Notes: generated by a model not told the origin, from the sequence alone. A DNA stretch of 41,158 bases from Candidatus Woesearchaeota archaeon (GCA_964408125.1 CAYOYC010000003.1:1-41158), one strand, 5' to 3'. Shown: positions 1 to 20,751, counted from the first letter of the stretch. Numbers and translations are program-made.

Positions 1-498
1 CCTTGTTGTGGGAAAACTACGTTGTTGAATAATTTAGCTGCGCGATCTTATCAAGTCGTTCCAGAAGCTGCTAGGATGGTTATTGAAGAGGAACAAAGAA
101 GAGGGTCTAGTTGTTTGCCTTGGAACAATCTTTATGAATTTCAAGAGAAGACTGCTGAAAGAATTTTGGATTTAGAACATTCGTTTGAGGATTCATTATT
201 ATTTTGTGATCGAGGTATTGTGGATGGGCATGGTTATGCAATGAATGGAGAAGTTAGCACTCCGGAGATAATATCTGACTTGGGAATAAAGAGATACGAT
301 TTGATTTTTATTTTAGAACCTGTTCCTGTTTATCAAAAGGATGAATCGAGAAAAGAGAGTCTTGCAGAGGGGAGAAAAATACATCAAGCAATTTGGAATG
401 CTTACAAAGAATTTGGGTATAATCCTATTTCAGTTCCAGTAATGGGTATTCAAGAAAGGGCAGATTATTTTGTTAAACTAATGGGTGGGCTGATATGA
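1..498 (+). CDS. P-loop NTPase, AAA_28/NadR-like family (5' end cut by window edge)
   Basis: Frame 1 is open from base 1 and reads PCCGKTTLL (end of Walker A), then VVPEAAR, FCDRG and YDLIFILEP motifs typical of AAA_28. The track start at 22 is not the true start. Confidence 0.75.
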   Translation, partial: PCCGKTTLLNNLAARSYQVVPEAARMVIEEEQRRGSSCLPWNNLYEFQEKTAERILDLEHSFEDSLLFCDRGIVDGHGYAMNGEVSTPEIISDLGIKRYDLIFILEPVPVYQKDESRKESLAEGRKIHQAIWNAYKEFGYNPISVPVMGIQERADYFVKLMGGLI

Positions 499-1154
499 GT
501 GATTTAATGAGTGAAGTTGCATATGATATAAGATATTATGAGTCGTTATGCAGCGAATATCATGAAAAAGTTAGGTATAGTTCTAATGGAAATCCAGATT
601 GTTATGGTGCTCATGCTAGAAAATTAGAAAAGAGAGCTGAAAGAGAAGAAGCAGAAAAAAACGGAAAAAAAGTTCCGATAGAAACAGAGGTAAAGTTAAG
701 AGTTAATGAAGATGTTATTTGTCGCTTGGAGAAGGAACTTGGGAACTCGTGGGATGAAGATAAATGGGAAAGACAGGAAAATATTATTTACAGAACGGGC
801 GATAGATTTATTAGGTTTAAACAAGAAGCGGGAGAAGTTACTTTAACTATTAAAGGTAAAAGAGCTTCAAATTCAAAATATAATGAAAGGCCTGAAGTGG
901 AATGCCCGCTTCCAAAAGATTTTTTCCAAAAGGTTTTAGGAAGTGGTTGTGCTGGTGCGGTTGTTTATGAAAAGCAAAGAGCTTCATATGAAAATTTAGG
1001 GTGTGAAATTTGTCTTGATAGGTTGGGAGAACAGTATTTTGTAGAAATTGAAGGAACAAAAGAGAAAATACAAAAAAATATTCGCGAGCTTCGTCTTACT
1101 GGATTTTCTTTAGAAACAAGAGATTATGCGCAGATTGTTTCAGGAAAAAAATAG
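495..1154 (+). CDS. CYTH-domain (CyaB-like triphosphate tunnel) protein with N-terminal extension
   Basis: ExExK motif (IETEVK), LTIKG, and ICLD...FVEIEG; ATGA overlap with the upstream gene. Confidence 0.75.
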   Translation: MSDLMSEVAYDIRYYESLCSEYHEKVRYSSNGNPDCYGAHARKLEKRAEREEAEKNGKKVPIETEVKLRVNEDVICRLEKELGNSWDEDKWERQENIIYRTGDRFIRFKQEAGEVTLTIKGKRASNSKYNERPEVECPLPKDFFQKVLGSGCAGAVVYEKQRASYENLGCEICLDRLGEQYFVEIEGTKEKIQKNIRELRLTGFSLETRDYAQIVSGKK

Positions 1155-1161
1155 GTTAAAT

Positions 1162-1650
1162 ATGATAAAAAGGATTTTAATTGAGGGTCCAGATTGTTCT
1201 GGAAAAAGCACTGCATTAGATAGAATAAAAAATGCATTGGGTTGGGATGCGAAATCATTACATCACCGTGATGGCGATCAATTTCAAAGATATATAAAAG
1301 AATATTGTTCTGCTGAAAATATTGTTTTTGATAGAGGTCATTTTTCAGAAGCCGTTTATGGGCAGATGTGGAGAGGGGGAAACCCTTTTTCTAGTCAAGA
1401 ATTTGATTTTTTAAATTTTTATCTAAGGAGAGAAGGGATTATTATTTTTGCTTTACCTCCTGAAGAGACTTTGGTAAGTCGCTATCGTTCAAGAAATTTT
1501 TCACAGCAAATAAAAGAAAGCGAACTTGCATTAGCTCGTGATTTATTTCTAGAAAAATCTAAAAATGTTCCTCATATATTTTACACTTCTTCATCGTTTA
1601 ATGAACTAGATGGCTTGGTTAAAAATGTTCTAAGGAGGGTTAATGGTTAA
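1162..1650 (+). CDS. Thymidylate/dNMP kinase-like P-loop protein
   Basis: ILIEGPDCSGKST Walker A and FDRGHFSEAVYG motif. ATG 1162 is preferred over the track start 1126 because it follows the upstream stop at 1154. Confidence 0.7.
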   Translation: MIKRILIEGPDCSGKSTALDRIKNALGWDAKSLHHRDGDQFQRYIKEYCSAENIVFDRGHFSEAVYGQMWRGGNPFSSQEFDFLNFYLRREGIIIFALPPEETLVSRYRSRNFSQQIKESELALARDLFLEKSKNVPHIFYTSSSFNELDGLVKNVLRRVNG

Positions 1651-2356
1651 ACTATATGTTCTTCCCGTTGAATCTGCATGTAATGCTATTTGTCCTTACT
1701 GTGTGAATCAATTTCGTAATCTTGGAGATTCTTTTTTGTCTGTTAAGGGATTGGAAAGATGTTTGAAAGATATCGATTCTCTAGAGAGTATAGAAATTAG
1801 CGGGGGTGGAGAACCTACCTTACATCCACAAATAGAAAAAATTATATGCTTGTGTGCAAGCAAAGCAAGAACGCAGATGTATACTAATGGTTCGATTGTT
1901 AGTTCTTTATCTGATGATGTGTTGAGAAAACTTAATCCTATTTGTATTTCTAGGGCTCATTATGATTCTAAAAAAAATAAAGAGATTATGGGAGTTAATT
2001 ATTCTGATGAAATTTTTTCAAGAGGATTGAATATTAAAATTTCTGCAGTCTTGTTTGCAGATGGAGTTAACTTACCTGAAGAGGCAGAGCAATATATTTT
2101 CTGGGCAAAGGGGAAGGCTAAAAAAGTTGTTTTTAGGCCATTATTTGAGGATGTAAATTATTCTACAGATGTTAAATCTAAGTTTGTTTCTCTTGATTCT
2201 TTTTCAAAATATTTTGGATTTAGTATACAGCAAGGTAAAAATGTTCAAATGGATTTGGATGGTGTGGATGTAGAGTTTGAAGTTAGATCATGTAGTTGTG
2301 AAAATACAAATCCTATTTTGCATGCAAATGGAAAATTAAATCATACTTGGGATTAA
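1643..2356 (+). CDS. Small radical SAM enzyme, function unknown
   Basis: CxxxCxxC (CNAICPYC), GGGEP and YTNG motifs; 237 aa. Confidence 0.8.
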   Translation: MVKLYVLPVESACNAICPYCVNQFRNLGDSFLSVKGLERCLKDIDSLESIEISGGGEPTLHPQIEKIICLCASKARTQMYTNGSIVSSLSDDVLRKLNPICISRAHYDSKKNKEIMGVNYSDEIFSRGLNIKISAVLFADGVNLPEEAEQYIFWAKGKAKKVVFRPLFEDVNYSTDVKSKFVSLDSFSKYFGFSIQQGKNVQMDLDGVDVEFEVRSCSCENTNPILHANGKLNHTWD

Positions 2357-2357
2357 A

Positions 2358-2879
2358 ATGATATTAACAGGTGAAGAAATTAAAAAACAAGTAGGTCTCG
2401 GGAGAATACATATTTCTCCATTTATTGAAGAAAATCTAAATCCTAATAGTTATAATTTTCGGCTTGGAAATAAATTAAAAGTTTATAAAAGTGATTGTTT
2501 AGATTCTGCGATTGAAAATGATTTTGATGAAATAACTATTCCCGAAGAAGGTTATTTTTTAGAGCCAAATAAACTTTATTTGGGACATACTATTGAGGAA
2601 ATGGGTTCAGATTTTTATGCTCCTACAATACAGGCAAGGAGCTCTGTGGGGAGATTAGGGCTATTTATCTACCTTAATTCAGGGTTAGGGGATATTGGTT
2701 TTAAAAAACAGTGGACTCTCGAATTACAGTCTATTCATAAACTAAAGGTTTATCCAGGTATGAAAGTTGGGCAGATGTTATTTTGGCAACCTGTTGGAGA
2801 TATAATTTTGTATAATGGAAAATATAAAAATTCTATTGGACCTCAAACAAGCCAGATATGGAAAGATTTTAAAAAATAA
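2358..2879 (+). CDS. dcd: dCTP deaminase (trimeric dUTPase-like family)
   Basis: NPNSYNFRLG, ARSSVGRLGL, TLEL, PGMKVGQ and YNGKY motifs. Confidence 0.85.
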   Translation: MILTGEEIKKQVGLGRIHISPFIEENLNPNSYNFRLGNKLKVYKSDCLDSAIENDFDEITIPEEGYFLEPNKLYLGHTIEEMGSDFYAPTIQARSSVGRLGLFIYLNSGLGDIGFKKQWTLELQSIHKLKVYPGMKVGQMLFWQPVGDIILYNGKYKNSIGPQTSQIWKDFKK

Positions 2880-2992
2880 TTATTTTTTAGCTTCCATAAA
2901 TAAAAAGGAGAAGGTCATTTAAATTAAAGATTTAAGATTATGGAAAAATAAATGTAAGATGTTTAGTTTTAATTGAGCGGTTATGAGAATAA

Positions 2993-3000
2993 TTTATAAA
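2993..3000 (+). promoter_or_regulatory. TATA box of the cyclase-family gene
   Basis: TTTATAAA starting 29 nt before ATG 3022. Confidence 0.6.
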
Positions 3001-3021
3001 GATAGCTTACTATGATCTTTG

Positions 3022-3666
3022 ATGAAGACTTTTAAGATTATAGATTTATCTACGGAGATTTCTTCAAATATGATCTCAATTCCTAAAAAAGAACATATAA
3101 AAACAAGATTAGATGAAGTTTCCACCTTAAAGAGAGATAAGATTAAAAGAACAATGTTGCATTGCAGTTGTCATTGTGGGACTCATATGGATGCGCCAAG
3201 CCATATTATTCCTTCAAAAATATCTATAGATAAGGTGGATTACAATAACTTTATTGGTTCTGCAATTAAAATAAAAATTTTGGCTAAATCTGGTCAAGAA
3301 ATTAAAATTAATGATTTGAAATTACCAGATAAAAAATATAATTTTCTGATACTTGAAACTGGTTGGTGCCAACATTGGGGTCTAAATGATTATTATCTTA
3401 ATTATCCTTATTTATCTGAAAGTTCAATTAAATTTATTTGTACTCTTCCTATAATAGGTCTAATTATAGATCTTCCAAGTTTAGATAGGTTCGGGGATGA
3501 TTCTTTCAAAAATCATAAGTTGATTTTTAGAAAAAATCTGATGGTGGTTGAATCGGCGATTAATTTGAATAAGCTTCCAAGTAATAGCTTATTTCAAGTT
3601 TATACCTTTCCATTAAAACTAGTGGGTGCTGAAGCTTCTCCTTGCAGGGTCATCGCAGCTATATGA
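3022..3666 (+). CDS. Cyclase family / kynurenine formamidase-like metal hydrolase
   Basis: HxGTHxDxPxH (HCGTHMDAPSH) and C-terminal PLKLVGAEASPCR. ATG 3022 is preferred over TTG 3019. Confidence 0.85.
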   Translation: MKTFKIIDLSTEISSNMISIPKKEHIKTRLDEVSTLKRDKIKRTMLHCSCHCGTHMDAPSHIIPSKISIDKVDYNNFIGSAIKIKILAKSGQEIKINDLKLPDKKYNFLILETGWCQHWGLNDYYLNYPYLSESSIKFICTLPIIGLIIDLPSLDRFGDDSFKNHKLIFRKNLMVVESAINLNKLPSNSLFQVYTFPLKLVGAEASPCRVIAAI

Positions 3667-3704
3667 GAATAGTGTAATTTTGTAGTAGTTACAAAATAGT
3701 AACA

Positions 3705-3712
3705 TTTAAATA
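3705..3712 (+). promoter_or_regulatory. TATA box of the accessory serS
   Basis: TTTAAATA starting 29 nt before ATG 3734. Confidence 0.6.
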
Positions 3713-3733
3713 CTCTGAGAATTAAGTAGATTT

Positions 3734-5002
3734 ATGTTAGATCTGAAAAAAATATGTGAGAATCCTGATTACTATCAGGCTTTGCTTAGAAAACGTTCTG
3801 CAGATATAGATTTATCTTCATTGGTTTCAGTATATCATGAAAATATTTATGTTAAAACACATTTAGATGGATTACGTAGTCAAAGAAACGAAGTTTCTAA
3901 AAAAATTGCGGCAATCCGTAGAGCAGGAGATAAGGATGTTTCTCTTGAAGAGTCTGCAGTTGGTTTAAAAAAAGAAATCTCTAATCTTGAGGAAAAGCAA
4001 AAAGTTCTCGATGTAAACCTGAGGGCGCTTGCAGTAGTTCTTCCTAATATCCCGCATGATTCTGTTCCGGTTTCATACAATGAGGGTGATAAAGTTATAC
4101 TCAGATCAAGCGGTCGTGAAAGAGAAGCAGATTTTGAATTGAGAGATCATTTGAGTCTTTGTACTGAGTTAGGTATGCTCGATTTTAAAACAGGATCTAA
4201 GATTGCAGGATCGCAATTTCCCTTATATCGTGGTAAAGGGGCTATCTTAGAGCGTGCAATATTAAATTTTCTTGTAGATAAAGTTACTTCAAAGGGTTAT
4301 CAGTTGATAATTCCTCCGCTTATGGTAAATGAGCGGTCGGCATTTACTGCTGGCGGTTTGCCAAAATTTAAAGATCAGTTATATCATTGTGATAAAGATG
4401 ATCTTTTTATGATACCTACATCAGAAGTGCCTCTGGCTGGCCTTCATTTAGATGACCTATTGTCTGCTGATGATTTACCAGAATATTATACTGCATGTAC
4501 TGCAAACTTTAGAAGAGAAGCAGGAGCATATGGTTCAAAAGAGAGAGGTCTTATTAGGGTCCATCAGTTTAATAAGGTTGAAATGTTTAAATATGTGCGA
4601 CCAGAATCATCATATGAAGAATTTGATAAACTTGTGAGTGATGCAGAAAGTTTAGTTCAGGATTTTGAATTGCCTTGCAGAGTGGCTCTTCTTCCAACCT
4701 CGGATATGGCTCAGCAAGCAGCCAAGACTATAGATATAGAAATTCATATCCCTTCTCAAAAAAGATATTATGAAACTTCTTCATGTAGCAATTGTGAAGA
4801 TTATCAGGCAAGAAGGGGAAATATGCGTTTCAAGGACGAAACTGGCAAAATAAGATACATGCACACTATTAATGGGTCTGGCTTAGCAACGTCTAGACTT
4901 TTTGCTTCAATAGTGGAGAATAATCAGACTAAAGAAGGCGGAATAACAATTCCAAAAGTATTGGTAAAGTATACTGGTTTTGATTATATAGCTTCAAGAT
5001 AG
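3734..5002 (+). CDS. serS: Seryl-tRNA synthetase, bacterial-type (accessory copy)
   Basis: N-terminal coiled coil, PTSE, motif 2 FRREAG...GLIRVHQFNKVE, SSCSNCEDYQARR, motif 3 NGSGLATSR. Confidence 0.95.
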   Translation: MLDLKKICENPDYYQALLRKRSADIDLSSLVSVYHENIYVKTHLDGLRSQRNEVSKKIAAIRRAGDKDVSLEESAVGLKKEISNLEEKQKVLDVNLRALAVVLPNIPHDSVPVSYNEGDKVILRSSGREREADFELRDHLSLCTELGMLDFKTGSKIAGSQFPLYRGKGAILERAILNFLVDKVTSKGYQLIIPPLMVNERSAFTAGGLPKFKDQLYHCDKDDLFMIPTSEVPLAGLHLDDLLSADDLPEYYTACTANFRREAGAYGSKERGLIRVHQFNKVEMFKYVRPESSYEEFDKLVSDAESLVQDFELPCRVALLPTSDMAQQAAKTIDIEIHIPSQKRYYETSSCSNCEDYQARRGNMRFKDETGKIRYMHTINGSGLATSRLFASIVENNQTKEGGITIPKVLVKYTGFDYIASR

Positions 5003-5052
5003 TTTTCTAAGATATTTAAAAGAGTTTAAAAAGGAAAAAATTATATAGTTAT

Positions 5053-5973
5053 ATGAATAATGAAGTAATTTTGTGTGGACTTATTGGTGATCCTGTCGAG
5101 CACAGCGTATCGCCATTATTATTTAAATATTATGCTAAATCGGCGGGGTTGAATAATTACTATCATTTTAAATTCAAAGTTGACAAGAGGGTCAAAGATG
5201 AACTAAAAAGGACAGTGGAAGGTATAAAAGCCTTTTCTATGCGAGGTTATAATATAACTCTTCCATATAAAATAAAGATTATGAAATATGTCGATATTCT
5301 TGATAAACAAGCAGAAAGAATAGGTGCTGTTAATGTAATCTTAAATAAAAATAGAAAAATATTAGGGTATAATACAGATGGTGTTGGATTTATTCGATCT
5401 TTGGAAACTTCAGTAAGAAACGTCCTAAGTACTGATAAAGTGGTTATTTTTGGTGCAGGAGGTGCGTCAAGAGCGATTTGTTCTGAGTTATATGCTAGAA
5501 CAAAAAATTTAGTGATAATTAATCGGGATTTAAAAGAAGGACTTGTTTTAAAGAATAGACTTGAGTTGTGGGGTGGCAAAGGAGTAAAACTTCTTATCTT
5601 TAATGATGTTAATCTGAAGAGAGAGATGTTAGATGCAAATATTATTTGTAATACTACTCCTGTGGGGATGTTTCCCTCTAATGAAGAATGTTTAATATCT
5701 GATGAAACTTTCAAATATTTAAGTAACAATAGAAAATCATGGAAAAATATAATCTTTTGTGATGCAATATTTAATCCTTATAAAACTAAATTTCTAGTAC
5801 AAGCTGAAAAATTAGGAGCTACGTCCCTCAGCGGAGTTGGTATGATGGTCTTCCAAGCAGTAGAGGCATTTAATATTTGGACAGGTAAGCGAGTGAATAC
5901 AAAAACTATAAAGCAGGCTTACAAGTTAGTTAACTTGGCTTTGAAAAATGCAAACAAAAAAAGAACGGGATAA
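5053..5973 (+). CDS. aroE: Shikimate dehydrogenase family protein
   Basis: GDPVEHSVSP, NITLPYK, GAVN, NTDG, GAGGASRA and GVGMMVFQA motifs; TTTAAAAA at 5025-5032. Confidence 0.9.
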   Translation: MNNEVILCGLIGDPVEHSVSPLLFKYYAKSAGLNNYYHFKFKVDKRVKDELKRTVEGIKAFSMRGYNITLPYKIKIMKYVDILDKQAERIGAVNVILNKNRKILGYNTDGVGFIRSLETSVRNVLSTDKVVIFGAGGASRAICSELYARTKNLVIINRDLKEGLVLKNRLELWGGKGVKLLIFNDVNLKREMLDANIICNTTPVGMFPSNEECLISDETFKYLSNNRKSWKNIIFCDAIFNPYKTKFLVQAEKLGATSLSGVGMMVFQAVEAFNIWTGKRVNTKTIKQAYKLVNLALKNANKKRTG

Positions 5974-6436
5974 CTTCTTATCAATAGGTTATTCTAATAA
6001 TAAGAGAAAAGTTGCGGATTATTTAAAAAAACAAATGGCTTTAGAGGTAAACTGATGCATGATATAGAAAATGAGGGCGCATTTGCAGGCACAATATTTT
6101 TCAAGAACAAAATATTAACAACAGTCGGGGGTAAGTATGTGCTGTTTTCTTGATAATATAGAGGTATTTATAACCCTAATTTGGAATAAAGGAGTAATAA
6201 CAATAGAGGGGATTGTGCTTAACAAAATTGATATCTTGAAAACAGTTGATAAATGCATAATTTCAAAAGAAGAAACTAAAATATTAGACTGCTATGGTAA
6301 TAGTCATATAACTTTGATAGGCGAAGTATCTAAAGATCCTTTAGGATATAAAAATGAAATAATTGATTCAAGAAAAGTGTTAAAAACCCCTGAGTTCATA
6401 GAACAATTATATAAATATTCTAATTTTATCAAATGA
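5948..6436 (+). pseudogene. Possibly fragmented hypothetical gene (intact 3' ORF 6137-6436)
   Basis: ATG 5948 overlaps the aroE end and stops at 6055. The -1 frame is open 6031-6153, then the original frame resumes. Both switches fall at homopolymers (A7 6025-6031, G5 6127-6131). Confidence 0.35.
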
Positions 6437-8103
6437 AAATATTAGGTATAAACATTGGAGAGACTCGAGAGGGTATTCATCTGCAGGACGGAGGAGCTGC
6501 ATTAGTAGTAGATGGTAAAATTAGTGTCGCCATAGCTGAAGAAAGAATTACAAGAAAGAAGTATGATGGTGGTTTTATTAATTCTGTAAAATATTGTTTG
6601 AATAGTTCTGGATTAAAACTTAAAGATATAGATTTTTTTGTTTTTAGTAATTGCTGTGACTTGTCCTTAGATTATAAATTTTTGAATAAAGTGCTCAAAA
6701 AGAATAAATTATTTATCCCCTTAAATAAGATTATTATAAATCCTTCCCATCATATGGCTCATGCTTGTAGTACTTTCTTTGCTTCGCCTTTTGATAAGGC
6801 TCTATTGGTGGTCGTTGATAATGAGGGAAATATTTTGAAGAAAAAATATAAGTCTTATTGGAAAAATTCTTTGGAAAGAACTTCTGTTTATATAGCAGAA
6901 GGAAATAAAGTAGAGTTATTATTTAGGATGCACGATGGTTTTAATGAACTTGGAATAGGGGCAGCATATAATTATTTTACTAAATGGTTGGGATTCAGGT
7001 CTTATCAAGATGCAAGCAAAACCATGGGTCTTGCCTCTTATGGTGGGTCGAGATTTAAATTTGTAAAAATTTTTGATAAAGAAGGTAAGTGTTTGTTGAA
7101 GAGTATTCATAATGACAAAGCTAGATCAGTTAGAGAGTTAATATTTGACCAATCAGGAATGGATATAGGTTTAAGGTGTGAATCTGTAGAGGATCCTAGT
7201 GCTCTTCAGAAAGACATAGCTTATCTTACTCAGACAGAGACAGAAAAGGCAGTTATAAGTATAATTCAGAAGGCTATTGCAAAGACGGGTATAAAAAATA
7301 TTTGTTTAGCGGGCGGTGTTGCATTAAATTGCGTGATGAACTATAAAATTATTGATCAACTCGGGGTAAATCTTTTTGTACAACCTGCTGCAGGAGATAC
7401 AGGCCAATGTTTGGGTGATGCTTTTTATGGATATTACATATCTAAAAACGGAAAAAATAGATTTCCCTATTTGAATAGTTATTTAGGTAAGTCTTATTCT
7501 TTTGATGATATAAGCTCTGCTTTAAAAAAATATTCGGCAAAAATAACTTACGTTAAACAAAACAATTTATCTAAAAAAGTAGCTCAACTTTTATCTGAGG
7601 GTAACGTTATTGGTTGGTTTAGCGGTAAAAGTGAATTTGGACCCAGAGCACTTGGAAATAGAAGTATTTTGGCAGATCCGCGAAATGCTTCGATGAAGGA
7701 TACTCTGAATTTAAAAGTCAAGTTTAGAGAACCCTTTAGGCCTTACGCCCCCATTGTTCTGGAAGAGGAATACGGATCTTATTTTGATTTAGATCTACCA
7801 AGTCCATTTATGTTATTGGCTCCTTCTGTTCTGGCAAAAATGAGGGATAAGATTCCGGCAGTAACTCATGTTGACGGAACGTCCAGAGTACAAACTATAA
7901 ATTCTACTCAAAATAAAAAAATTTATTCGCTCATAAAAGAATTTAAGAAATTAACAAGTGTTCCAGTTATTCTTAACACCTCATTTAATATTGCCGGAGA
8001 ACCAATTGTAGAGACACCCGATGACGCAATCAGATGTTTTTTAAATACGAATATTGACTATTTAATAGTGGAGGACTATATTATCCAAAAATGCAAGAAA
8101 TAA
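6433..8103 (+). CDS. Carbamoyltransferase, NodU/CmcH/TobZ family
   Basis: EERITRKK, HHMAHA, LAGGVALNC, EFGPRALGNRSILADPR, REPFRPYAP, HVDGTSRVQT, LNTSFN...GEPIVETP. Confidence 0.95.
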   Translation: MKILGINIGETREGIHLQDGGAALVVDGKISVAIAEERITRKKYDGGFINSVKYCLNSSGLKLKDIDFFVFSNCCDLSLDYKFLNKVLKKNKLFIPLNKIIINPSHHMAHACSTFFASPFDKALLVVVDNEGNILKKKYKSYWKNSLERTSVYIAEGNKVELLFRMHDGFNELGIGAAYNYFTKWLGFRSYQDASKTMGLASYGGSRFKFVKIFDKEGKCLLKSIHNDKARSVRELIFDQSGMDIGLRCESVEDPSALQKDIAYLTQTETEKAVISIIQKAIAKTGIKNICLAGGVALNCVMNYKIIDQLGVNLFVQPAAGDTGQCLGDAFYGYYISKNGKNRFPYLNSYLGKSYSFDDISSALKKYSAKITYVKQNNLSKKVAQLLSEGNVIGWFSGKSEFGPRALGNRSILADPRNASMKDTLNLKVKFREPFRPYAPIVLEEEYGSYFDLDLPSPFMLLAPSVLAKMRDKIPAVTHVDGTSRVQTINSTQNKKIYSLIKEFKKLTSVPVILNTSFNIAGEPIVETPDDAIRCFLNTNIDYLIVEDYIIQKCKK

Positions 8104-9521
8104 AACTTTCTAAATTTGCAAATTTTATCAAGGTGGGCAATTCGTTTTGTTTATATCACTCCTTATTATTTAATACTATTTTTATTAATCCTGCTATCTA
8201 TAGAGCAATTAAGAAAGATATACGGAGTTTTACTATAGCTTATCCTAAACTATTTGATATTTTAAAAACAAATAAGTTGCTAGTTCTTCCGGAAGAGGAT
8301 CAAAATGTTTTAAATTCGCTTAGAGAGATAAAAAATATTCCGGAATATTCTTTATTGAGGATATTAATGACTGATGTATGTAACTTATCTTGTAAGTATT
8401 GTAAGGTCGATCGTAATATAAAAAATAAATTAACTGCCGATCTTAAAAAAGAAGATTTAATTTTGGCCCTTAAGCAATTCCAAAAAGTATCTAACTCGGA
8501 CGTTAAGCTAGTTTCGATAACTGGCGGTGAACCCCTAGTTTATTTTGATAAAGTTAAGGAAATTATAGAGTCCTGTTCAAAATATTTAACTAATTATTGG
8601 ATAATCTTGTTTACTAATGCTACCCTTATGACTCCCCAGTTGGCTAAATACTTTAAAAAAAATTCAATAGGGGTAGTCGTATCATTGGATGGGCCAAAGT
8701 CGGAGCATGATATTGCCAGGGTGGATTTGGCAGGTAAGGGTTCTTATGATAGGGTAATTAAGGGATTTAAAATTTTAAAAAAAGAGGGTTGTAATGTAGG
8801 TATATCTTGTGTTGTGGGAAAACATAACTGTGATAATCTTGTAAATGATATTAAATTTATTATAAACAAACTCAAGCCAGATAGTTTGGGTCTTAATCCA
8901 TTAAAATATCCTTCACCCAAGGATAAAAACTTTTTTCTACTTACTAAGCCGGAGGAATACGCAATTAAGACTTATGAAATTTTTGAATATATACGAAAAA
9001 AAGGCATATTCTTGGAGCAAATAAATAGGAGATTGACTCCCTTTGTTGAAAAAAAGTTTAAATTTTATGAATGCGGAGGGTGTAGTGGTAAAAATATAAA
9101 TTTAGATGCTAGGGGCAATATCGGTTCGTGTAAATCTTATTTAGTTATGGAAAAGTTATGTCAGCATGTTAGTGAACCCATTAGGGGGAGTAAATATTTT
9201 AATAAGCTAATGAAACGTTCTCCAATTTATACCGATAGTTGTATTTCTTGTTCTGCAATAGGTATTTGCGGCGGAGGATGTTCTTATGAAGCTTTTGTAG
9301 ATAAGGGAGATCAGTTTAGGTATTCTAATCGAACTTGCAAGTTTTCGAAAACTTTTCTTGATTTATTATTAAACGACTTATATCGTTTGAATAAAAAGAG
9401 TATTGACACCAGTTTAACAAATAACGGATATTATTACATTACGGATGAAGATCGTTATAAAATTTATGGTAATGTTAAAATAACTCCCGGAACACTAAAA
9501 TACTCTGTAGGACATTCTTAA
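8091..9521 (+). CDS. Radical SAM/SPASM domain enzyme
   Basis: CNLSCKYC, GGEP, SLDG...HD..R, SPASM cysteines (C...GNIGSC; CISCSAIGICGGGC...C); about 85-aa N-terminal extension. Confidence 0.9.
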   Translation: MQEIKLSKFANFIKVGNSFCLYHSLLFNTIFINPAIYRAIKKDIRSFTIAYPKLFDILKTNKLLVLPEEDQNVLNSLREIKNIPEYSLLRILMTDVCNLSCKYCKVDRNIKNKLTADLKKEDLILALKQFQKVSNSDVKLVSITGGEPLVYFDKVKEIIESCSKYLTNYWIILFTNATLMTPQLAKYFKKNSIGVVVSLDGPKSEHDIARVDLAGKGSYDRVIKGFKILKKEGCNVGISCVVGKHNCDNLVNDIKFIINKLKPDSLGLNPLKYPSPKDKNFFLLTKPEEYAIKTYEIFEYIRKKGIFLEQINRRLTPFVEKKFKFYECGGCSGKNINLDARGNIGSCKSYLVMEKLCQHVSEPIRGSKYFNKLMKRSPIYTDSCISCSAIGICGGGCSYEAFVDKGDQFRYSNRTCKFSKTFLDLLLNDLYRLNKKSIDTSLTNNGYYYITDEDRYKIYGNVKITPGTLKYSVGHS

Positions 9522-9523
9522 CA

Positions 9524-11002
9524 ATGGTTCGGAATATTAGTAAACAACTCATTTCTCTGACTAAAGAGGCTTTTTTTGATTATGTCTTGCCTGCAATTAA
9601 AGACAAGTATTCTGCTTCCCTTGATAAATTTTTTGTAAATATAACTTCTTCAGTCGCATATGGCGTGGCAGATAAACATTCAGACATTGATGTTTTTATA
9701 CTTTTTAGGGAGCACAAAGATTATTTAAAATTTCATGAAAAATTTGATAAAATAATCAAGGCGATAAAGTTTCCAGAAAAATTTGAAGGTATGTGCGATA
9801 AGGGTATGCGTTTTGAATTTGAAAGTCTTAAGAAATCTGATGTTTTAGATTTTTATCGTACTCAGTCTTATGAAACTTGGATGAATCAGACAGAATGGCT
9901 TCTTTGTTGGCTTGTCAATTCAGTAACTATCTATGATCCCAAAGATTATATTACCTCTTTTAAGAAAAAAATTAAGTTTTTTGATGGCGATGTTCTCAAA
10001 TCAAAGGTCAATATGTCATTTATATTATTATTAAAATATCAAAAAATTCTTTCGAAAATTGACCCTCTTAATGAACATTACCTAGCAGATTTTTATTTTT
10101 TTAAGGTAGCTAAACAATTAATGAACTTGGCATATTGGTCTGCTAAGAAATATACTCCTCACACAAAATGGCAATATTTCATGTTACAGTTTATTGGTTC
10201 GTATGGGCCGGCGTTATACTATGATTTGGATTTAATTTTAGCTACAGATAATCCCAATAGATTAAAAATAATTGGGAAATGGACTGCCCAGTTTGGAAGA
10301 TATTGGTTTAATCATAAAATTTTGGATAAGGAGATCTATAATTTTTATATTAATGAATACAAATTTAATACGGAAAATTCTAGCAACAAAAATATTATTT
10401 TATTTAAAAATTATGGGGAAGTCATTAAAAACAAGGGTAATATTTTTTCTTCGTTAAATTCGCTAGGTAAGTTTAGTAACTTTTTCTTAAATGAAGAAAC
10501 CAATATTGTTTATTTGGGAAAATATGATTATGATGCCATAATGCGAATACAAGATAAATATGTTGGTTTGGATACTGGTAAGATATCTTCAAAAATACAA
10601 ACTAAAAGAATAAACTATTTGCATTTTATAATTTGGAGAAAGATTCGAGTAATAAATGGTGCATTGAAAAGAAATAATCGTTTTAATCAGGCGTGGTATG
10701 CTAATCAAGCGGTGGAACATATCATTGAAATGAGTTTTAGATTAAAAAAACAAAAATTGCCTTTAGAATTTATTCAATTATCTTCGTTAAAATCTTCGGG
10801 TTATTTTCCTCAAATTTATCCTCTTTTGATTAAAAGTTTTAAACTAGATACTCCTAATAAAATTGAAATACTTTGGAAATGTTTTTTTATACTTCAAAAA
10901 TATATTAAGAAAAATAAAATATTATCTCAATTTCAAATAGGTAATCCCCTAGAGATTCAATTTGATATAGAATATTGGAAATATGAGAATTTAAGGCTTT
11001 AA
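9524..11002 (+). CDS. Pol-beta superfamily nucleotidyltransferase-like protein (DUF4037-like)
   Basis: SSVAYGVADKHSDID (variant GS...DxD motif) and YTPHTKW motif, with a long helical C-terminus. Confidence 0.6.
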   Translation: MVRNISKQLISLTKEAFFDYVLPAIKDKYSASLDKFFVNITSSVAYGVADKHSDIDVFILFREHKDYLKFHEKFDKIIKAIKFPEKFEGMCDKGMRFEFESLKKSDVLDFYRTQSYETWMNQTEWLLCWLVNSVTIYDPKDYITSFKKKIKFFDGDVLKSKVNMSFILLLKYQKILSKIDPLNEHYLADFYFFKVAKQLMNLAYWSAKKYTPHTKWQYFMLQFIGSYGPALYYDLDLILATDNPNRLKIIGKWTAQFGRYWFNHKILDKEIYNFYINEYKFNTENSSNKNIILFKNYGEVIKNKGNIFSSLNSLGKFSNFFLNEETNIVYLGKYDYDAIMRIQDKYVGLDTGKISSKIQTKRINYLHFIIWRKIRVINGALKRNNRFNQAWYANQAVEHIIEMSFRLKKQKLPLEFIQLSSLKSSGYFPQIYPLLIKSFKLDTPNKIEILWKCFFILQKYIKKNKILSQFQIGNPLEIQFDIEYWKYENLRL

Positions 11003-11006
11003 TTTT

Positions 11007-12302
11007 TTATATCTTTTTTTCTTTTTGAGCTTTTATTTCTTTAAAACCCGTATATTTCCATAGTGCTTTTGGGATTTTTAAGCTGCCATCTTTTTGTTGA
11101 TGATTTTCTATAAATGCTATTAACGCTCTTGGCGAAGCCAGTACTGTGTTATTTAGAGTATGTGCGTAATAATTGCCCTTTGGAGAAGTAATTTTTATAT
11201 TTAATCTTCTAGCTTGAGCTTCTTCCATGTTGGTCAGGGAACAAATTTCAAAGTATTTCTTTTGTCTTGGGCTCCAAGCTTCAAGGTCGCAAGATTTTGC
11301 TTTTAGATCTGCCAAGTCTCCGGAACAGCATTCTAAAACTCTTATAGGTATTTCTAGTGCCTTAAAAACTTCAATACCGTACTCTAACATTTTATCATAC
11401 CACTTGTATGAATCTTCGGGTTCGCATATTACTATCATCTCTTGTTTTTCGAATTGGTGTCTTCTATAAAATCCTTTTTCCTCTAGTCCGTGGCTGCCTA
11501 TTTCTTTTCTGAAGCAAGGAGAATAACTTGTGAGGTTTATTGGCAGTTCCTTTTTATTTAAGGTTTTATCTATAAATCTTCCAATCATTGAATGTTCTGA
11601 AGTTCCAATCATGTAAAGATCTTCGCCTTCAATCTTGTACATCATATTATTTATATCCATGCATGCCATAACTCCTTCCACTACTTTTTTTCTTATCATA
11701 AAGGGAGGAATTACATATTCAAATCCCTGTTCTATCATATAATCTCTGGCGAATGCTAACATTGCAGAATGTAGAATTGCTATTTTACCTCTAATAAAAT
11801 AAAATCCATTTCCGGATGTTTCTCTTGCAGATTCAAAGTCTGCCCCATTAAGTTTTTCTACAATATCGGCATGATTTAGGATTTCATATTCTGGAACTTT
11901 AGGCTCTCCTATTTTTCTTAATTCTACATTTTCTGAGGAATCTTTACCTATGGGTACTGAAGAATGTATAATATTTGGAATCTGGTACATGATTTTTTTT
12001 ATCTCTTCACCAAGTGAATTTTCTTTTTCTTCTAATTTTACTATTTCTTCAGGGATTTTCTTTGCTTCTTCTATAAGTTGTTTTGCAGTTTTTTCATCTT
12101 TATTTTTTTTAGCTTTATTAATTTCTTCTGAAACTTTATTTCTTTGAGATCTCAGTTTATCTGCTTCTCCCCTTGCAGTTCTCCATTCCCTATCTAATTC
12201 AATTACTTTGTCAACCAAAGGTAATTTTGCATTTTGGAATTTCTTTTTTATGTTTTCTCTAACTAAGTCTGGATTTTCTCTTAATATTTTAATGTCTATC
12301 AT
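11007..12302 (-). CDS. serS: Seryl-tRNA synthetase (probable housekeeping copy)
   Basis: MIDIKILRENP start, GTSE, FRKEIGSHG...HQFEKQE, HTLNNT. Start 12302 is supported by TTTAAATA 29 nt upstream (12331-12324). Confidence 0.95.
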   Translation of the reverse strand: MIDIKILRENPDLVRENIKKKFQNAKLPLVDKVIELDREWRTARGEADKLRSQRNKVSEEINKAKKNKDEKTAKQLIEEAKKIPEEIVKLEEKENSLGEEIKKIMYQIPNIIHSSVPIGKDSSENVELRKIGEPKVPEYEILNHADIVEKLNGADFESARETSGNGFYFIRGKIAILHSAMLAFARDYMIEQGFEYVIPPFMIRKKVVEGVMACMDINNMMYKIEGEDLYMIGTSEHSMIGRFIDKTLNKKELPINLTSYSPCFRKEIGSHGLEEKGFYRRHQFEKQEMIVICEPEDSYKWYDKMLEYGIEVFKALEIPIRVLECCSGDLADLKAKSCDLEAWSPRQKKYFEICSLTNMEEAQARRLNIKITSPKGNYYAHTLNNTVLASPRALIAFIENHQQKDGSLKIPKALWKYTGFKEIKAQKEKKI

Positions 12303-12484
12303 ATTGTTTTGATTGAAAAACATTATTTAAACTTTATTGTGGTTATGTTTTTACATAAGCTCTTGTTTTAAAAATTAATTCCATCGTGAAAAATTTTGTA
12401 TCTACTCTTCGTGGACGAAAAGTTTGGGAAAGCTTTAAAAGCAGTTCATAACTCTAAAATATAGGTTGCAATATATATATTCAA

Positions 12485-12766
12485 ATGGTAACAATAAACG
12501 ATAACTTTGATTTGTTTTTCAGGAGAAAGCCGGCGATGATGCTTCTTGCTCTGAAAAGAATGAATAAAGCAAAATATGGTTCTGTTTTAGCAAAAGAAGT
12601 TGATTGCACATATTCTCATGCTGTTAAAATATTGCAGATTCTAGAAGAGCTTGGTCTTGTTGGGTTTGAGAAGAAAGGTAGAATCAAAATAATAAAGTTA
12701 ACCAAAAGAGGATTACAGATTGCGGAGAATATAGAAGCTATAAAAGAGATTATTGACGCTAGTTAG
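12485..12766 (+). CDS. Small winged-helix (MarR-like) DNA-binding protein
   Basis: LAKEVDCTYSHAVKIL helix-turn-helix and KKGRIKIIKLTKRG wing. Confidence 0.8.
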   Translation: MVTINDNFDLFFRRKPAMMLLALKRMNKAKYGSVLAKEVDCTYSHAVKILQILEELGLVGFEKKGRIKIIKLTKRGLQIAENIEAIKEIIDAS

Positions 12767-12833
12767 TTTTCGAATATTTTTAGGAATATAAATAATTTTA
12801 AGGGTTTTTTGTTGTAGTTTTAAAGAATAAAAA

Positions 12834-12908
12834 TGACCTCGAAGGGATTTGAACCCTCGACACCCACGTTAAGAGCGTGGTACTCTAACCGGGCTGAGCT
12901 ACGAGGCC
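12834..12908 (-). tRNA. tRNA-Lys(CTT)
   Basis: Acceptor GGCCTCG/CGAGGTC, anticodon arm CCACG-CTCTTAA-CGTGG, TTCAAAT loop; no intron, CCA not encoded. Confidence 0.95.
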
Positions 12909-13100
12909 ATTTAAGTTATGGGCAAAGAGTGATTTAAAAAAGTTTGTAATTTCTAAATTGGAGATTTCTGTATGGAATAAAATCAAGAAGTTGGTTTTTA
13001 GATGAAATTTATGCCAAAACTACTTTAAAATAACAAAAACAAAACATTTAAAAAGCAACTTTTTTTAATGTTTTCATCTAAACTACTGATAGTCTTTAGT

Positions 13101-13310
13101 ATGCACATTCTCCAGCCAAAACACACGAAATTAAAACAAGAGGAAGTAAATAAATTACTTGTAAAGTATAATATTTCCTTGGCTCAATTACCTAAAATTT
13201 CTAAAGAAGATCCAGCTATTTTTGAATTAAATGTCCAACTTGGTGACGTAATCAAAATTGATAGAAAAGTTGCAGAAGGGAGTGAAGAATATTTTCGTGT
13301 TGTTGTTTAA
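13101..13310 (+). CDS. rpoH: RNA polymerase subunit H (Rpo5)
   Basis: HILQPKH, LPKI...DPA, GDVIKIDR, YFRVV; first gene of the RNAP operon; ATG 13101 preferred. Confidence 0.92.
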   Translation: MHILQPKHTKLKQEEVNKLLVKYNISLAQLPKISKEDPAIFELNVQLGDVIKIDRKVAEGSEEYFRVVV

Positions 13311-13319
13311 TTTTTAAAA

Positions 13320-16300
13320 ATGGTTGCCCAAAAGTCTGTTACGGTTGATAGAAAGCATGTTCTTGTTAAGGAATTCTTAAGAAATCACTCTATAGTTGAA
13401 TCAAACATTACTTCGTTTAATGATTTTATTGAAAATAGAATGCAAGAAATGGTTTCAGAATTGAATGAGAGTTTGCCAAAAGAAGATTTTGAAATAAAAA
13501 TGGGCAAAATTACCGTTGGTAAACCAGATATCGTTGAAGCAGATGGTTCTATTAAATTAATTACACCAGCCGAAGCAAGATTAAGAGGACTAACTTATTC
13601 TGCGCCAATAAAGATCGAATTAACTATAAGATATGAAGGACAGATAGAAGCAGCAGAAGTTCAACTTGGCAGAATACCAATTATTGTAAAAAGTAAAGCT
13701 TGCAATCTTTATGGATTAAGTAAAGATGAGCTTATAGAGAAATATATTGATCCGGCAGATTCTGGCGGATATTTTATTGTAAATGGGAATGAAAGAATTT
13801 TGGTTATGGCTGAAGATTTGGCATCTAATCAATCATTTTTGGAAAATCAAAAAGTAAAAGGATTTGTTTTAAGGTTATTTTCGCAAAGAGGAGCATATAA
13901 AATACCAGTATCTATTAATGAAAGCAAAGAAGGAATATTAGAGATTTCTTTTTCAAGGTTTAGAAAAATTCCAGTAATGATTTTATTGAAGGCCCTTGGG
14001 ATGGTTTCCGAAGCTGAGATATCCAAGATGATTGGGAAGCAAACAGATGGGTTACTTGTAAATTTATATGAATATGCATCACTTGCTGATGCCGAAGAAG
14101 CATTGATGAAAATAGCAGAGCTAACCTCATTACAGGGTACTAAGAAAGAAGTGTTGGATAGAACAAAGCAGAGGATAGATTCTTATTTATTACCACATGT
14201 TGGATTGGATAAAAATGCAAGACTGGAAAAAGCAAAAACTCTTTGTAAATTGATAAAGCAATTTTATATCTCTAAAGAACATCCAGATGATTCTTTAACA
14301 GATAAAGACCATTATGCAAATAAGAGAGTTAGACTTTCTGGTGACTTGCTTTCCGATTTGTTTAGGGTTAATTTAAATATATTATTGAGAGAAGTACAGC
14401 ATTCATTGCAGAAGACAGTAAAGAGAAGAAAATTCTATTCCATAAAAACAATTGCTAAATCAACTTTATTTTCTCATAGAATTGAATCCGCCATTGCTAC
14501 TGGTTCGTGGATTGGTGAAAGGACTGGAGTAACTCAGAATATGAAAAAGGATAATTTTTTATCCGTTATGTCACAATTACAGAAAGTTGTTTCTACATTA
14601 CCTGGAGAACAGGAAAATTTTGCAGCTAGAACTGTACATCCAACTCATTATGGAAGATTCTGTCCAGTAGAAACACCAGAAGGTACTGAAATTGGTTTAA
14701 GAAAGAATTTGGCCATGTTAGCTAGAGTTTCTACTAGATGTATGGTCCCAGAGGATAAAATTATAAAGGTTTTAGTTGAGGAAAAAATGTCGAGAGAAGG
14801 AAACGATGGAATAGATGTTTTCTTGAATGGGAGATATGTTGGAGTTGTTCAAAATGGAAGAGAATTTTTCTTAAGTGCTAGAGAAAGAAGAAGAAAAGGA
14901 AATTTACCAATTGATTTAAGTATAAAATATGATTCATTTTTAGGAGCGGTATTCTTATCTACAGAAGTCGGAAGGGTTTTGAGACCACTGATTATTGCAG
15001 ACAAGGGTGTTTCTAGATTAAAAGAAGAGCATTTGAATTTAGTTGAGCAGGGATCTTTGACTTGGAATAATTTAGTTGAACAGGGAATTATAGAATATCT
15101 TGATGCTTCTGAAGAAGATAATAATTATGTTTCTTTATATAAGGAAGAGCTAACAGAGGATCATGATTATTTAGAAGTTGATCCTATTGCGTGTCTTGGG
15201 GTTATTACATCCATTGTTCCGTATGCAAATCATGATCAGGCGCCTAGATTATTAAGGGGTAGTAAGACTCAGACACAGTCTCTGGGAATATATGCAGCTA
15301 ATTATCACGTAAGAATAGATACGAATGTTTCTATTTTACATTATCCGCAAAAACCATTAGCGAGAAGCTTTACTTATGATACGTTGAATGTTTATCCAGC
15401 TGGACAAAATGTTATTGTTGCGGTTTTGCCTTACGATGGTTATAATATTGAAGATGCGGTTGTTTTAAACCAGGGTTCTATAGATAGAGGATTGGCTAGA
15501 AGTTCGTACTTTAGACCGTATACTTCCGTTGAATTAAATTATGCGGGAAGATTAAAGGATGAAATATGTATTCCGGAAAAAGATGTTTCTGGATATAGAA
15601 TGGAACAATCATATAAATATTTAGAGGATGACGGAATAGCTTATCCTGAAGCAGATATGAAAGAGGGAGATGCAGTTATTGGAAAGATTTCTCCTCCTAA
15701 GTTCTTATCTGAAGCAAGAGAAATTTCTATACAAACTAAGAAAGAAAATTCAACTGTGGTTAGGCAAGAAGAAACAGGGATAGTAGATGGAGTATTTATT
15801 ACATTGGACGGAGATGGAAATAAGTTGGTTCAAGTTAGAATGAGAGATTTAAGAAAGCCAGAAGTTGGAGATAAGTTTGCAACACCACACGGACAGAAGG
15901 GAATCGTTGGTTTTATTGCACCAGAACTAGATGTTCCATTTACTGCTAGGGGAGTAAGGCCAGATTTGATTTTCAATCCACATGGTATCCCATCTCGTAT
16001 GACTGTCGGTTATTTATTGGAAATGATGGCTGGAAAAGTTGCAGCATTATCTGGTGTTGTTAGAGATGCTTCTGCATTTGCAGGAGAAGAACTTTTAAGC
16101 TTAGAGGAAAATTTGAAGAAGTTAGGATTTAGATATGACGGCAAAGAGGCATTATATCATGGGGTTACGGGACAGAAGTTGCCAGTTAAGATATTCGTTG
16201 GTAATATGTATTATTTGAAATTAGGACGTATGGTAAAGAATTTATTACATGCGAGAGCATCTGGTAAGATTGCATTATTAACAAGACAGCCGATTGAAGG

Positions 16301-20271: not shown

Positions 20272-20273
20272 TA

Positions 20274-20714: not shown

Positions 20715-20751
20715 ACATAATCTTTATAAATCGTTATTTCGAGGAGTTTGT

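Follow-up and report, generated by a model that had tools for sequence, protein, structure and literature searches.

The stretch of DNA analysed here, 41,158 nucleotides from a Candidatus Woesearchaeota archaeon and referred to below as the window, carries two genes for seryl-tRNA synthetase (SerRS1 and SerRS2) that are convergent across a block of enzyme genes (Table 1). This block, which runs from a cyclase-family gene to a nucleotidyltransferase (NTase) gene, forms an island that a DPANN-like lake-water archaeon with a small genome acquired horizontally. We found the island to be a reduced version of a conserved mobile cluster family, the core of which consists of one or two SerRS, a TobZ-type O-carbamoyltransferase (CTase), a radical SAM/SPASM enzyme (rSAM) with a putative RRE domain, an NTase/DUF4037 protein resembling aminoglycoside nucleotidyltransferases (ANT) and an AroE-like dehydrogenase. 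An earlier note on this DNA, made from the sequence alone, had listed the genes; ORF (open reading frame) calls and family profiles found each of them where it had been placed, and added the small ORF99, which had not been listed. NTase and SerRS2 genes are themselves convergent, with 4 nt separating their stop codons.

Table 1. Features of the island and of its native surroundings, with positions in the window
Feature	Position	Strand	Remarks
Inserted island, ~8.1 kb, cyclase-family gene through NTase	2880-11006		No counterpart in 7/7 same-genus genomes
Cyclase-family (PF04199) metal hydrolase-like protein, 215 aa	3019-3666	+	Pfam E 9e-21
SerRS1, 422 aa, island-borne, bacterial-type	3734-5002	+	TIGR00414 437.4 bits, cut-off 301.65
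AroE-like (shikimate/quinate dehydrogenase family) oxidoreductase, 306 aa	5053-5973	+	TIGR00507 205.2 bits, cut-off 200.2
ORF99, 99 aa, candidate gene	6137-6436	+	Overlaps CTase start by 4 nt
TobZ/NodU/CmcH-type O-carbamoyltransferase (CTase), 556 aa	6433-8103	+	Carbam_trans_C E 1.1e-71, Carbam_trans_N E 3.4e-41
Radical SAM/SPASM enzyme (rSAM), RRE-like N-terminal domain, 476 aa	8091-9521	+	Pfam
NTase (NTP_transf_2 + DUF4037), 492 aa, marker gene of the cluster family	9524-11002	+	Pfam
SerRS2, archaeal-type, in the ancestral serS slot	11007-12323	-	TIGR00414 422.4 bits
dCTP deaminase-like gene, left native flank	2358-2879	+	Pfam DCD E 1.1e-35
Small winged-helix protein (wHTH), right native flank	12485-12766	+	Followed by tRNA-Lys and rpoH/rpoB/rpoA
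tRNA-Lys, native	12833-12909	-	Right flank

An island in a reduced archaeal genome

The genome to which the window belongs (G000) comprises 649 kb in 39 contigs and is 82% complete. Genes for archaeal RNA polymerase subunits (Rpb5/RpoH-like, Rpb2-like, Rpb1-like), EF-2 and Sua5 lie just downstream of the island region, and both genome size and gene content are consistent with the reduced, DPANN-like archaeon proposed earlier.

The borders of the island were defined by comparing the window with all seven other genomes of the same genus (G001-G007). In each of these, a serS gene occupies the slot of SerRS2. In four (G001, G002, G006 and G007) a convergent serS comes immediately after the dCTP deaminase gene, with the winged-helix gene next to it. 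On the left, the same four have AAA28 - orf219 - kinase-like - small rSAM in this order; on the right, rpoH - rpoB is present in G001, G004, G005 and G006. G003, G004 and G005 show a partial order only, with the serS - wHTH - rpoH side kept in G004 and G005 and serS adjoining AAA28/orf219 in G003. The dCTP deaminase-like flank is 81-91% identical in G001, G002 and G007, where serS adjoins it, and the winged-helix flank is 85-93% identical in six congeners. No match to the cyclase-family, aroE-like, CTase, rSAM or NTase gene was found in the corresponding regions of G001-G007. Since the serS slot is filled in all congeners and the island genes have no match in these regions, we place the insertion at 2880-11006, its right end 4 nt from the SerRS2 stop codon. 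With a GC content of 0.26-0.37, the island is similar to its flanks.

The two serS genes could have been brought together by a chimeric assembly, as the earlier note had itself considered. We checked this against independent Logan contigs of three sequencing runs (X1, X2 and X3), the first of which may be the source sample. Contigs of X1 cover 1500-5152 and 5129-13500 with 0 differences and at an even depth of ~10-11, and the junction of NTase and SerRS2 is bridged without differences by X2 (10899-11186) and X3 (10896-11046), two other lake-water runs; at the left junction of the island the bridging contig comes from X1 alone. As independent contigs span both junctions, a chimeric assembly is unlikely and, as far as these contigs show, ruled out.

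The native, genus-conserved genes of window positions 1-2879 comprise an AAA_28 P-loop protein, orf219 with a weak CYTH/class IV cyclase-like match, a dTMP-kinase-like protein, a small radical SAM enzyme of 237 aa with weak MoaA/viperin-like matches, and the dCTP deaminase-like protein.

Recurrence of the gene set in bacteria

To follow the gene set outside the window, the NTase family was traced, the loci encoding its members were fetched and these were searched with the window proteins by tblastn. Among 8000 candidates scored from a database of 5.8 billion sequences, 27 proteins belonged to the NTase family at E<=1e-3, including proteins named from Kitasatospora, Streptacidiphilus and Thermoactinomyces. 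In archaea the NTase was found in none of 150 other genomes of the order and in none of 400 further genomes of the phylum. A CTase is present in 15 of the 150 genomes of the order, with at most 46% identity; the best rSAM match there reaches 32%, no genome with one of the better rSAM matches (E<=1e-30) carries the CTase, and no co-occurrence of the gene set was found among the 150. The linkage thus emerged only once the NTase family was followed into bacteria.

We retrieved thirteen NTase loci, nine from genome contigs and four from metagenome contigs. They stem from Streptomycetaceae, Patescibacteria, an alphaproteobacterial metagenome-assembled genome (MAG) and metagenomes, and represent, together with the window, about five independent lineages: the window with L055; the near-identical L033, L034 and L056; L038 with L058; L057; and five loci of Streptomycetaceae. 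A SerRS gene adjoins the NTase gene in twelve of the thirteen; the exception, L040, is a 2.1-kb contig holding only part of the NTase gene. The same rSAM is found in 10/13, an aroE-like gene in 9/13 and the carbamoyltransferase in 8/13 loci. The suggestion of the earlier note to look for conserved co-occurrence in other genomes was therefore rewarded: SerRS stands beside the NTase almost throughout, mostly together with rSAM, CTase and an aroE-like gene.

The arrangement varies between lineages. Kitasatospora arboriphila and three Streptacidiphilus genomes have a collinear CTase - rSAM - NTase - aroE-like - SerRS order on one strand; the locus of Streptomyces sp. TP-A0356 gave no CTase match. 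In L056, which is intact, we found CTase - NTase - convergent SerRS-a - second rSAM - rSAM - SerRS-b - aroE - a fusion of a xylose-isomerase-like TIM barrel (XylTIM) with a GFO/IDH/MocA oxidoreductase (GFO) - metallo-beta-lactamase-type (MBL) hydrolase; L034 ('Candidatus Falkowbacteria') shares this gene order, and L033 is nearly identical. The alphaproteobacterial L038 reads rSAM - NTase - convergent SerRS-a, then GFO, XylTIM, aroE, MBL and SerRS-b, and L057 reads SerRS - CTase - rSAM - NTase - XylTIM - GFO - aroE. An NTase followed by a convergent SerRS, as in the window, is thus also seen in L033, L034, L056 and L038. XylTIM, GFO and MBL genes are usual additions in the bacterial clusters. 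The window enzymes are closest to the Patescibacteria version, with 44% identity for the NTase. For the CTase the values are 57-58% (L033/L056), 47% (L057) and 41-42% (actinobacterial loci); for the rSAM, 49-50% (L034/L056), 41% (L057) and 33-36% (the rest); and for the AroE-like protein, 47% (L057), 41-42% (L034/L056), 41% (L038) and 19-23% (actinobacterial loci).

Traces of mobility are present in two lineages. Two inverted copies of an rve-family transposase gene, at 8692-9657 (+) and 19861-20826 (-), flank the L034 cluster, and one of them has cut the CTase gene, intact in L056 and L033, to a C-terminal fragment. In L038 a serine recombinase gene with Resolvase and Recombinase domains (5152-6243) lies ~2.3 kb upstream of the cluster. 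As a side observation, all that can be recognised of the NTase in L058 (10001-11500) is its final 52 residues, beside a gene of the SerRS-a type; judged by these sequences, L058 looks like a decayed cluster remnant.

Ancestry and integrity of the synthetases

SerRS1 and SerRS2 are only 34% identical (144/427). Both align over positions 1-418 of TIGR00414, the model for SerRS of the bacterial, eukaryal and most archaeal type, above the curated cut-off, and both keep the N-terminal tRNA-binding arm domain (Seryl_tRNA_N, E 9.9e-20 and 2e-27). Among 59 columns conserved at >=93% in 76 ordinary SerRS, SerRS1 deviates at seven and SerRS2 at four, none of them in TxE, FRxE or the Arg/Glu of motif 3. 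In all cluster SerRS copies, TxE, motif 2 and the Arg/Glu columns of motif 3 are intact.

The two window enzymes differ in ancestry. SerRS1 has at most 41% identity to any SerRS of 40 relatives; its closest database proteins are two unnamed sequences (74% and 54%), followed at 47-53% by many bacterial SerRS labelled, among others, Bipolaricaulia, Omnitrophica, Latescibacteria and Acetobacteraceae. In a quick IQ-TREE phylogeny of 52 sequences it nests within a bacterial clade, with an SH-aLRT support of 99 for its grouping with its two closest matches. Going by its sequence, SerRS1 came in by horizontal transfer, is of bacterial type and still looks competent. SerRS2 is placed inside the archaeal SerRS clade of its family, with 68% identity to G009 and 66% each to G022 and G011, which belong to other genera of the family. 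The motif 3 sequences, GSGLATSR in SerRS1 and NNTVLASPR in SerRS2, are of what we take to be bacterial and archaeal style, respectively. The possibility, named in the earlier note, that both SerRS are ordinary vertical copies does not hold: SerRS1 is a xenologue, and SerRS2 is unlike the serS of the seven congeners.

G000 has exactly two serS genes, both at the island. Two full serS matches were found in just one of the 40 relatives (G016), and the two-SerRS arrangement of the window is more than chance. The second SerRS of G016 (L065, G016:C44 158-1405) lies on a 2.5-kb contig and falls together with the Patescibacteria cluster's SerRS-b (SH-aLRT 85); G016, which is 78% complete, gave no NTase match.

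In all five bacterial genomes checked, the cluster SerRS is extra to a copy elsewhere. The genomes behind L034, L038 and L033 have three serS each, two of them cluster-associated; Streptacidiphilus has two, one in the cluster, and Streptomyces sp. TP-A0356 has three. The third SerRS of the latter (L053, G172:C23) is not part of the cluster; its branch in the tree is long and close to the bacterial-type clade that includes SerRS1. The tree divides the cluster copies among at least four separate clades. Constraining the 14 bacterial cluster copies and SerRS1 to a single clade, a group defined by genomic position and tested after the tree had been seen, costs 286.7 log-likelihood units (approximately unbiased test, AU p 5e-91). 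Different SerRS would thus have been recruited repeatedly to the same enzyme set, which points to a functional need rather than shared descent; on the evidence of the tree, the linkage of SerRS appears to be functional, not inherited.

We also looked for a resistance signature in SerRS1. The residue following the conserved HT is changed from Leu to Ile or Val in 10 of 11 cluster-borne SerRS copies in the alignment, and Ile occurs at this position in 3 of 120 database matches, one being SerRS1 itself and two of unknown context. As the 74% relative has Leu, we rejected this signature as too weak.

The serS slot between the dCTP deaminase and winged-helix genes has a history of its own. In this one genus it holds at least three serS lineages (window 11007-12323; L062, L063, L070 and L072-L075). 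The serS of the congeners at this slot have 39-55% identity to SerRS2 and fall in three different places of the tree; those of G002 and G004-G007 have 39-42%, and the one of these five that is in the tree (G006) falls near the bacterial-type clade. By contrast, the immediate neighbours of the slot are 81-93% identical, and RpoB 82-94%. From the low identity at the slot compared with its conserved neighbours, and from the three tree positions, we conclude that serS was replaced in place at least twice in the genus. Such repeated replacement would fit selection on SerRS identity, and SerRS2 may have arrived together with the island.

The enzymes and what the cluster may make

CTase and NTase look like types of enzymes that tailor small molecules. 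The CTase matches both of its Pfam domains above cut-off (240.3 and 142.3 bits), and in sequence it is like the TobZ-type O-carbamoyltransferases: among proteins of solved structure it matches 7xb6 (2e-80), NovN (5e-71), GdmN and TobZ (E 1e-65 to 1e-80), and its score against the NodU family itself, 162.9 bits, is below the cut-off of 1000. The NTase exceeds the Pfam cut-offs for NTP_transf_2 (26.7 bits, cut-off 21) and DUF4037 (30.6 bits, cut-off 22.1); its profile gave nothing below E 0.1 against PDB sequences, and the ESM Atlas yielded only generic, much shorter DUF4037/NTP_transf_2 clusters. In the predicted structure (pLDDT 91, pTM 0.91), the N-terminal half (~270 of 492 residues) matches the fold of ANT(4')/kanamycin nucleotidyltransferase (KNTase), LinB, ANT(6) and AadA, with a Foldseek probability of 1.00 against 6un8/1kny (E 6e-4, TM 0.60 by target). 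By this model and its domain make-up, the protein is probably an ANT/KNTase-like small-molecule nucleotidyltransferase. Unlike those O-nucleotidyltransferases it is about twice as long, with a C-terminal half that is long, helical, conserved and without a solved relative; a passage of PMC3710099 groups DUF4037 with the C-terminal domain of aminoglycoside nucleotidyltransferases.

The rSAM has the CxxxCxxC motif and the SPASM cysteines. Its best NCBIfam matches are peptide maturases, all below their cut-offs, and the best Foldseek matches in full-length comparison of its model (pLDDT 81.7) are 8vpo (TigE), 5wgg, anSME, ChlB and SuiB, with the nucleoside enzyme BlsE ranking far lower. Residues 10-79 are modelled as three strands followed by three helices (pLDDT 84-94). 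We take 8vpo, 5wgg and SuiB to be RRE-bearing, as parts of PMC10878394 and PMC12710340 also indicate. Judged by the model, the rSAM resembles maturases that act on peptides or proteins, and its N-terminal domain is RRE-like. In its three-part architecture and SPASM cysteines it is like the RRE-bearing rSAM/SPASM maturases of peptides that are made by the ribosome and modified after translation (RiPPs) and like anSME; unlike these maturases, it stays below every NCBIfam cut-off, comes without a precursor peptide gene and has an invariant C-terminal tail of its own. This tail (residues 464-476, window 9480-9518; pattern TL.YS[IV]GH) is invariant or nearly so in all ten orthologues and follows 30 variable residues. 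The actinobacterial versions (L035-L037, L039 and L041) have in addition an N-terminal extension of ~95 residues (e.g. L036 ~8250-8510; pattern GCGSCG ... LPLPR ... GRDGLP) that is not found in the archaeal or Patescibacteria versions.

No conserved small ORF that could encode a precursor peptide was found across the window, L056, L057, L038 and the actinobacterial loci, and the L038 and L057 clusters leave no room for one. A separate ORF in the actinobacterial gap between CTase and rSAM was dismissed, as the gap is taken up by the N-terminal extension of the rSAM; ORF99 and two small ORFs upstream of the CTase in L033/L056 were also dismissed, being mutually dissimilar. ORF99 has no Pfam, NCBIfam or PADLOC family and no homologue in any cluster locus, and may or may not be a gene.

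The AroE-like protein passes the TIGR00507 threshold marginally. G000, which is 82% complete, yielded no chorismate synthase, EPSP synthase or type I dehydroquinase, and we do not assign the AroE-like protein to the shikimate pathway. In the bacterial clusters, XylTIM and GFO are sugar- or cyclitol-type enzymes (the best NCBIfam match of GFO is IolG, below cut-off) and MBL is lactonase-like. The cyclase-family gene belongs to the island by position only: tblastn found no homologue in any of the 13 related loci, and the score of its protein against the arylformamidase model TIGR03035 (61.7 bits) is below the cut-off of 223. Searching for PADLOC 2.0 defence systems left seven of eight island proteins without a match; the one match, of the rSAM to pVip, was a generic core match.

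That a biosynthetic cluster can carry a copy of its target synthetase is known already. According to passages of PMC9032320, the Streptomyces albomycin cluster (abm) includes abmK, which gives immunity and also supplies seryl-adenylate, and a second protein resembling aminoacyl-tRNA synthetases, AbmF, performs a condensation; the same passages report self-resistance by target duplicates in the clusters of the synthetase inhibitors mupirocin, borrelidin and agrocin 84, and a class II SerRS in valanimycin biosynthesis, VlmL, that supplies seryl-tRNA to the pathway. As in albomycin, where AbmK is a second SerRS, so far as those passages describe it, a full-length SerRS paralogue extra to the housekeeping copy stands in the cluster together with a carbamoyltransferase and a radical SAM enzyme, the latter two compared at the level of families only, and AbmF parallels the versions of the present cluster with two SerRS. 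The earlier note had stated that the island is not albomycin itself, and we agree: it lacks the PLP (pyridoxal phosphate)-dependent transaldolase/epimerase (AbmH/AbmD), the non-ribosomal peptide synthetase (NRPS) genes for the ferrichrome siderophore and the deoxycytidine-kinase-like gene. Neither were PLP transaldolase/epimerase or NRPS siderophore genes seen in the examined neighbours of the related loci. Unlike albomycin, the present family has an ANT-like NTase/DUF4037, AroE-like, XylTIM and GFO proteins, and an rSAM that appears from its model to be an RRE-type SPASM maturase. Like the mupirocin, borrelidin and agrocin 84 clusters, as far as these are described there, it links an extra synthetase copy to the cluster genes; unlike them, its synthetases are of several unrelated ancestries, with up to two per cluster. 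VlmL, also cluster-borne, is on the same description a seryl donor and not a resistance enzyme; unlike in valanimycin, no seryl-transferase homologue was identified in the present cluster.

By analogy with abmK and AbmF, we favour, tentatively and at somewhat less than even chances, the reading that this is a mobile cluster for a SerRS-directed metabolite, in which SerRS serves as immunity enzyme or seryl donor. The product of the cluster would be an antimetabolite that is related to serine and targets SerRS, probably by mimicking an aminoacyl-nucleotide on a sugar, a cyclitol or a peptide. Its scaffold would be shaped by the redox enzymes and the rSAM, the CTase would add a carbamoyl group and the NTase would put a nucleotidyl group on a hydroxyl. 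The cluster-borne SerRS would protect the producer and may, like AbmK, also supply activated serine; for the archaeon this would make SerRS2 the working enzyme, of archaeal type, and leave immunity or seryl donation to SerRS1. The earlier note had interpreted the island as a candidate biosynthetic cluster with its own SerRS, which may make or modify a carbamoylated seryl or nucleotidyl metabolite and use the extra SerRS in resistance or serylation. The cluster and its own SerRS stand, supported by the recurrence in 12/13 loci; a simple nucleoside pathway fits poorly with an rSAM that resembles peptide maturases.

Several observations weigh against the SerRS-directed metabolite. No product, exporter or regulator was identified for the cluster. 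The closest structures of the rSAM are all of enzymes with peptide or protein substrates, yet a conserved precursor ORF is found neither in nor between the cluster genes. The CTase is missing from L038 and L041. XylTIM, GFO and MBL are without counterpart in a search of the whole of G000 (the lone match has 19.9 bits), and with these missing the archaeal pathway may be incomplete. SerRS1 resembles ordinary bacterial SerRS, with 47-53% identity to many housekeeping enzymes, and the lone substitution it shares with cluster copies, Leu to Ile, is conservative and not present in the 74% relative. A third serS in G000 is possible, given that the genome is 82% complete. Finally, in L055 (1-1845), a contig of a relative, nt 1-126 match SerRS1 (window 4694-4819, 94% identity) and nt 166-1844 match the rSAM tail and NTase (window 9350-11024, 71%). 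Either the relative has lost 4.5 kb, comprising aroE and the genes that follow up to and including most of the rSAM, as appears to be the case, or the metagenome contig is chimeric.

Another explanation, unlikely in our view yet deserving attention, is that of a resistance or detoxification island, in which the extra SerRS would replace or bypass a synthetase targeted by an inhibitor from outside, and NTase, CTase and a hydrolase (the cyclase-family protein here, MBL elsewhere) would inactivate that inhibitor through nucleotidylation, carbamoylation or hydrolysis. It would account for the fact that the best structural relatives of the NTase, ANT(4'), LinB, ANT(6) and AadA, are antibiotic-inactivating enzymes, for the absence of the sugar/cyclitol redox genes from the archaeal version and for the small genome in which no shikimate partner genes were found; the at least three xenologues in the serS slot of the genus, amid neighbours of 81-93% identity, would fit an outside pressure on SerRS. 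However, six to eight enzymes, including rSAM/SPASM and three redox/isomerase genes, are kept together in Streptomycetaceae, Patescibacteria and the alphaproteobacterial MAG, which exceeds the usual need of resistance, and bypass alone hardly explains why a cluster should have two extra SerRS.

The properties of the rSAM raise the question if the scaffold is a peptide. Peptide aminoacyl-tRNA ligases (PEARLs) extend peptides in an aminoacyl-tRNA-dependent manner, and a RiPP-like or PEARL-like pathway would put SerRS-activated serine on a peptide or protein, to be modified by rSAM, CTase and NTase and released by a hydrolase. The best sequence and fold matches of the rSAM (8vpo, 5wgg, anSME, ChlB and SuiB), its N-terminal domain of three strands and three helices, its invariant C-terminal tail and the conserved ~95-residue extension in actinomycetes would all suit such a role. 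We nevertheless regard it as improbable: no version has a conserved small ORF, two of them being without room for it, no LanB/PEARL-like, protease or exporter gene was seen in the island or the examined cluster neighbours, and the remaining enzymes resemble small-molecule tailoring enzymes.

That there is no functional link at all, SerRS1 being a horizontally replaced housekeeping serS beside unrelated accessory genes in a variable region, would be in keeping with the frequent replacement of serS in this clade and the similarity of SerRS1 to ordinary bacterial SerRS, but is very improbable given a SerRS beside the rare NTase in 12/13 loci of about five lineages and copies extra to the housekeeping gene in 5/5 bacterial genomes checked.

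The pyl genes, which comprise a synthetase, a radical SAM enzyme, an ATP-using transferase and a dehydrogenase, have the same general make-up. A recoding cassette of the pyrrolysine type, in which a dedicated synthetase goes with enzymes that form a non-standard amino acid, either on its dedicated tRNA or for it, can be dismissed almost entirely: a tRNA-Ser(GGA) gene does lie ~0.9 kb beyond the far end of the L038 cluster, and the same tRNA near L058, but both are outside the cluster, the tRNAs of L034 and L037 lie several kb away from the cluster genes, seven of eleven loci scanned gave no tRNA gene, the window's sole nearby tRNA is the native tRNA-Lys, and the SerRS copies are of different ancestry. 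A dedicated tRNA was thus sought in the window and these eleven loci and found inside none of the clusters.

Returning to the SerRS-directed metabolite, a wider version of this reading is speculative and rather doubtful: the cluster would be a cross-domain mobile cassette for conflict over SerRS, with which ultra-small organisms of lake and groundwater (Patescibacteria and this archaeon) and actinomycetes make an aminoacyl-nucleotide mimic that poisons SerRS. Each transfer would recruit whatever insensitive SerRS is at hand, one copy in the two-SerRS versions would be a seryl-ligating biosynthetic enzyme, and the in-place replacement of serS in the archaeal genus would be the footprint of an arms race.

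We found no description of this cluster in full-text papers, only albomycin and unrelated mentions of DUF4037, which leaves an unpublished or database-only record possible. New are the enzyme set, its occurrence in an archaeon as well as in actinomycetes, Patescibacteria and an alphaproteobacterial MAG, and the fact that unrelated SerRS were recruited to it repeatedly. If the SerRS-directed metabolite is real, the cluster would represent a second way in nature, with no relation to albomycin, of making a compound that targets SerRS, a validated antibiotic target. Its product would be directly searchable in culturable carriers, which according to record titles include Kitasatospora arboriphila JCM 13002, Streptacidiphilus neutrinimicus NBRC 100921, S. 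pinicola and Streptomyces sp. TP-A0356. Whatever the product, the rare NTase/DUF4037 gene predicts an adjoining SerRS, which provides a function-linked context for an uncharacterised protein family. For the archaeon, the reading would mean that a genome-reduced organism keeps an 8-kb island of accessory enzymes with its nearest version in Patescibacteria, which would bear on gene flow and chemical conflict among episymbiotic microbes.

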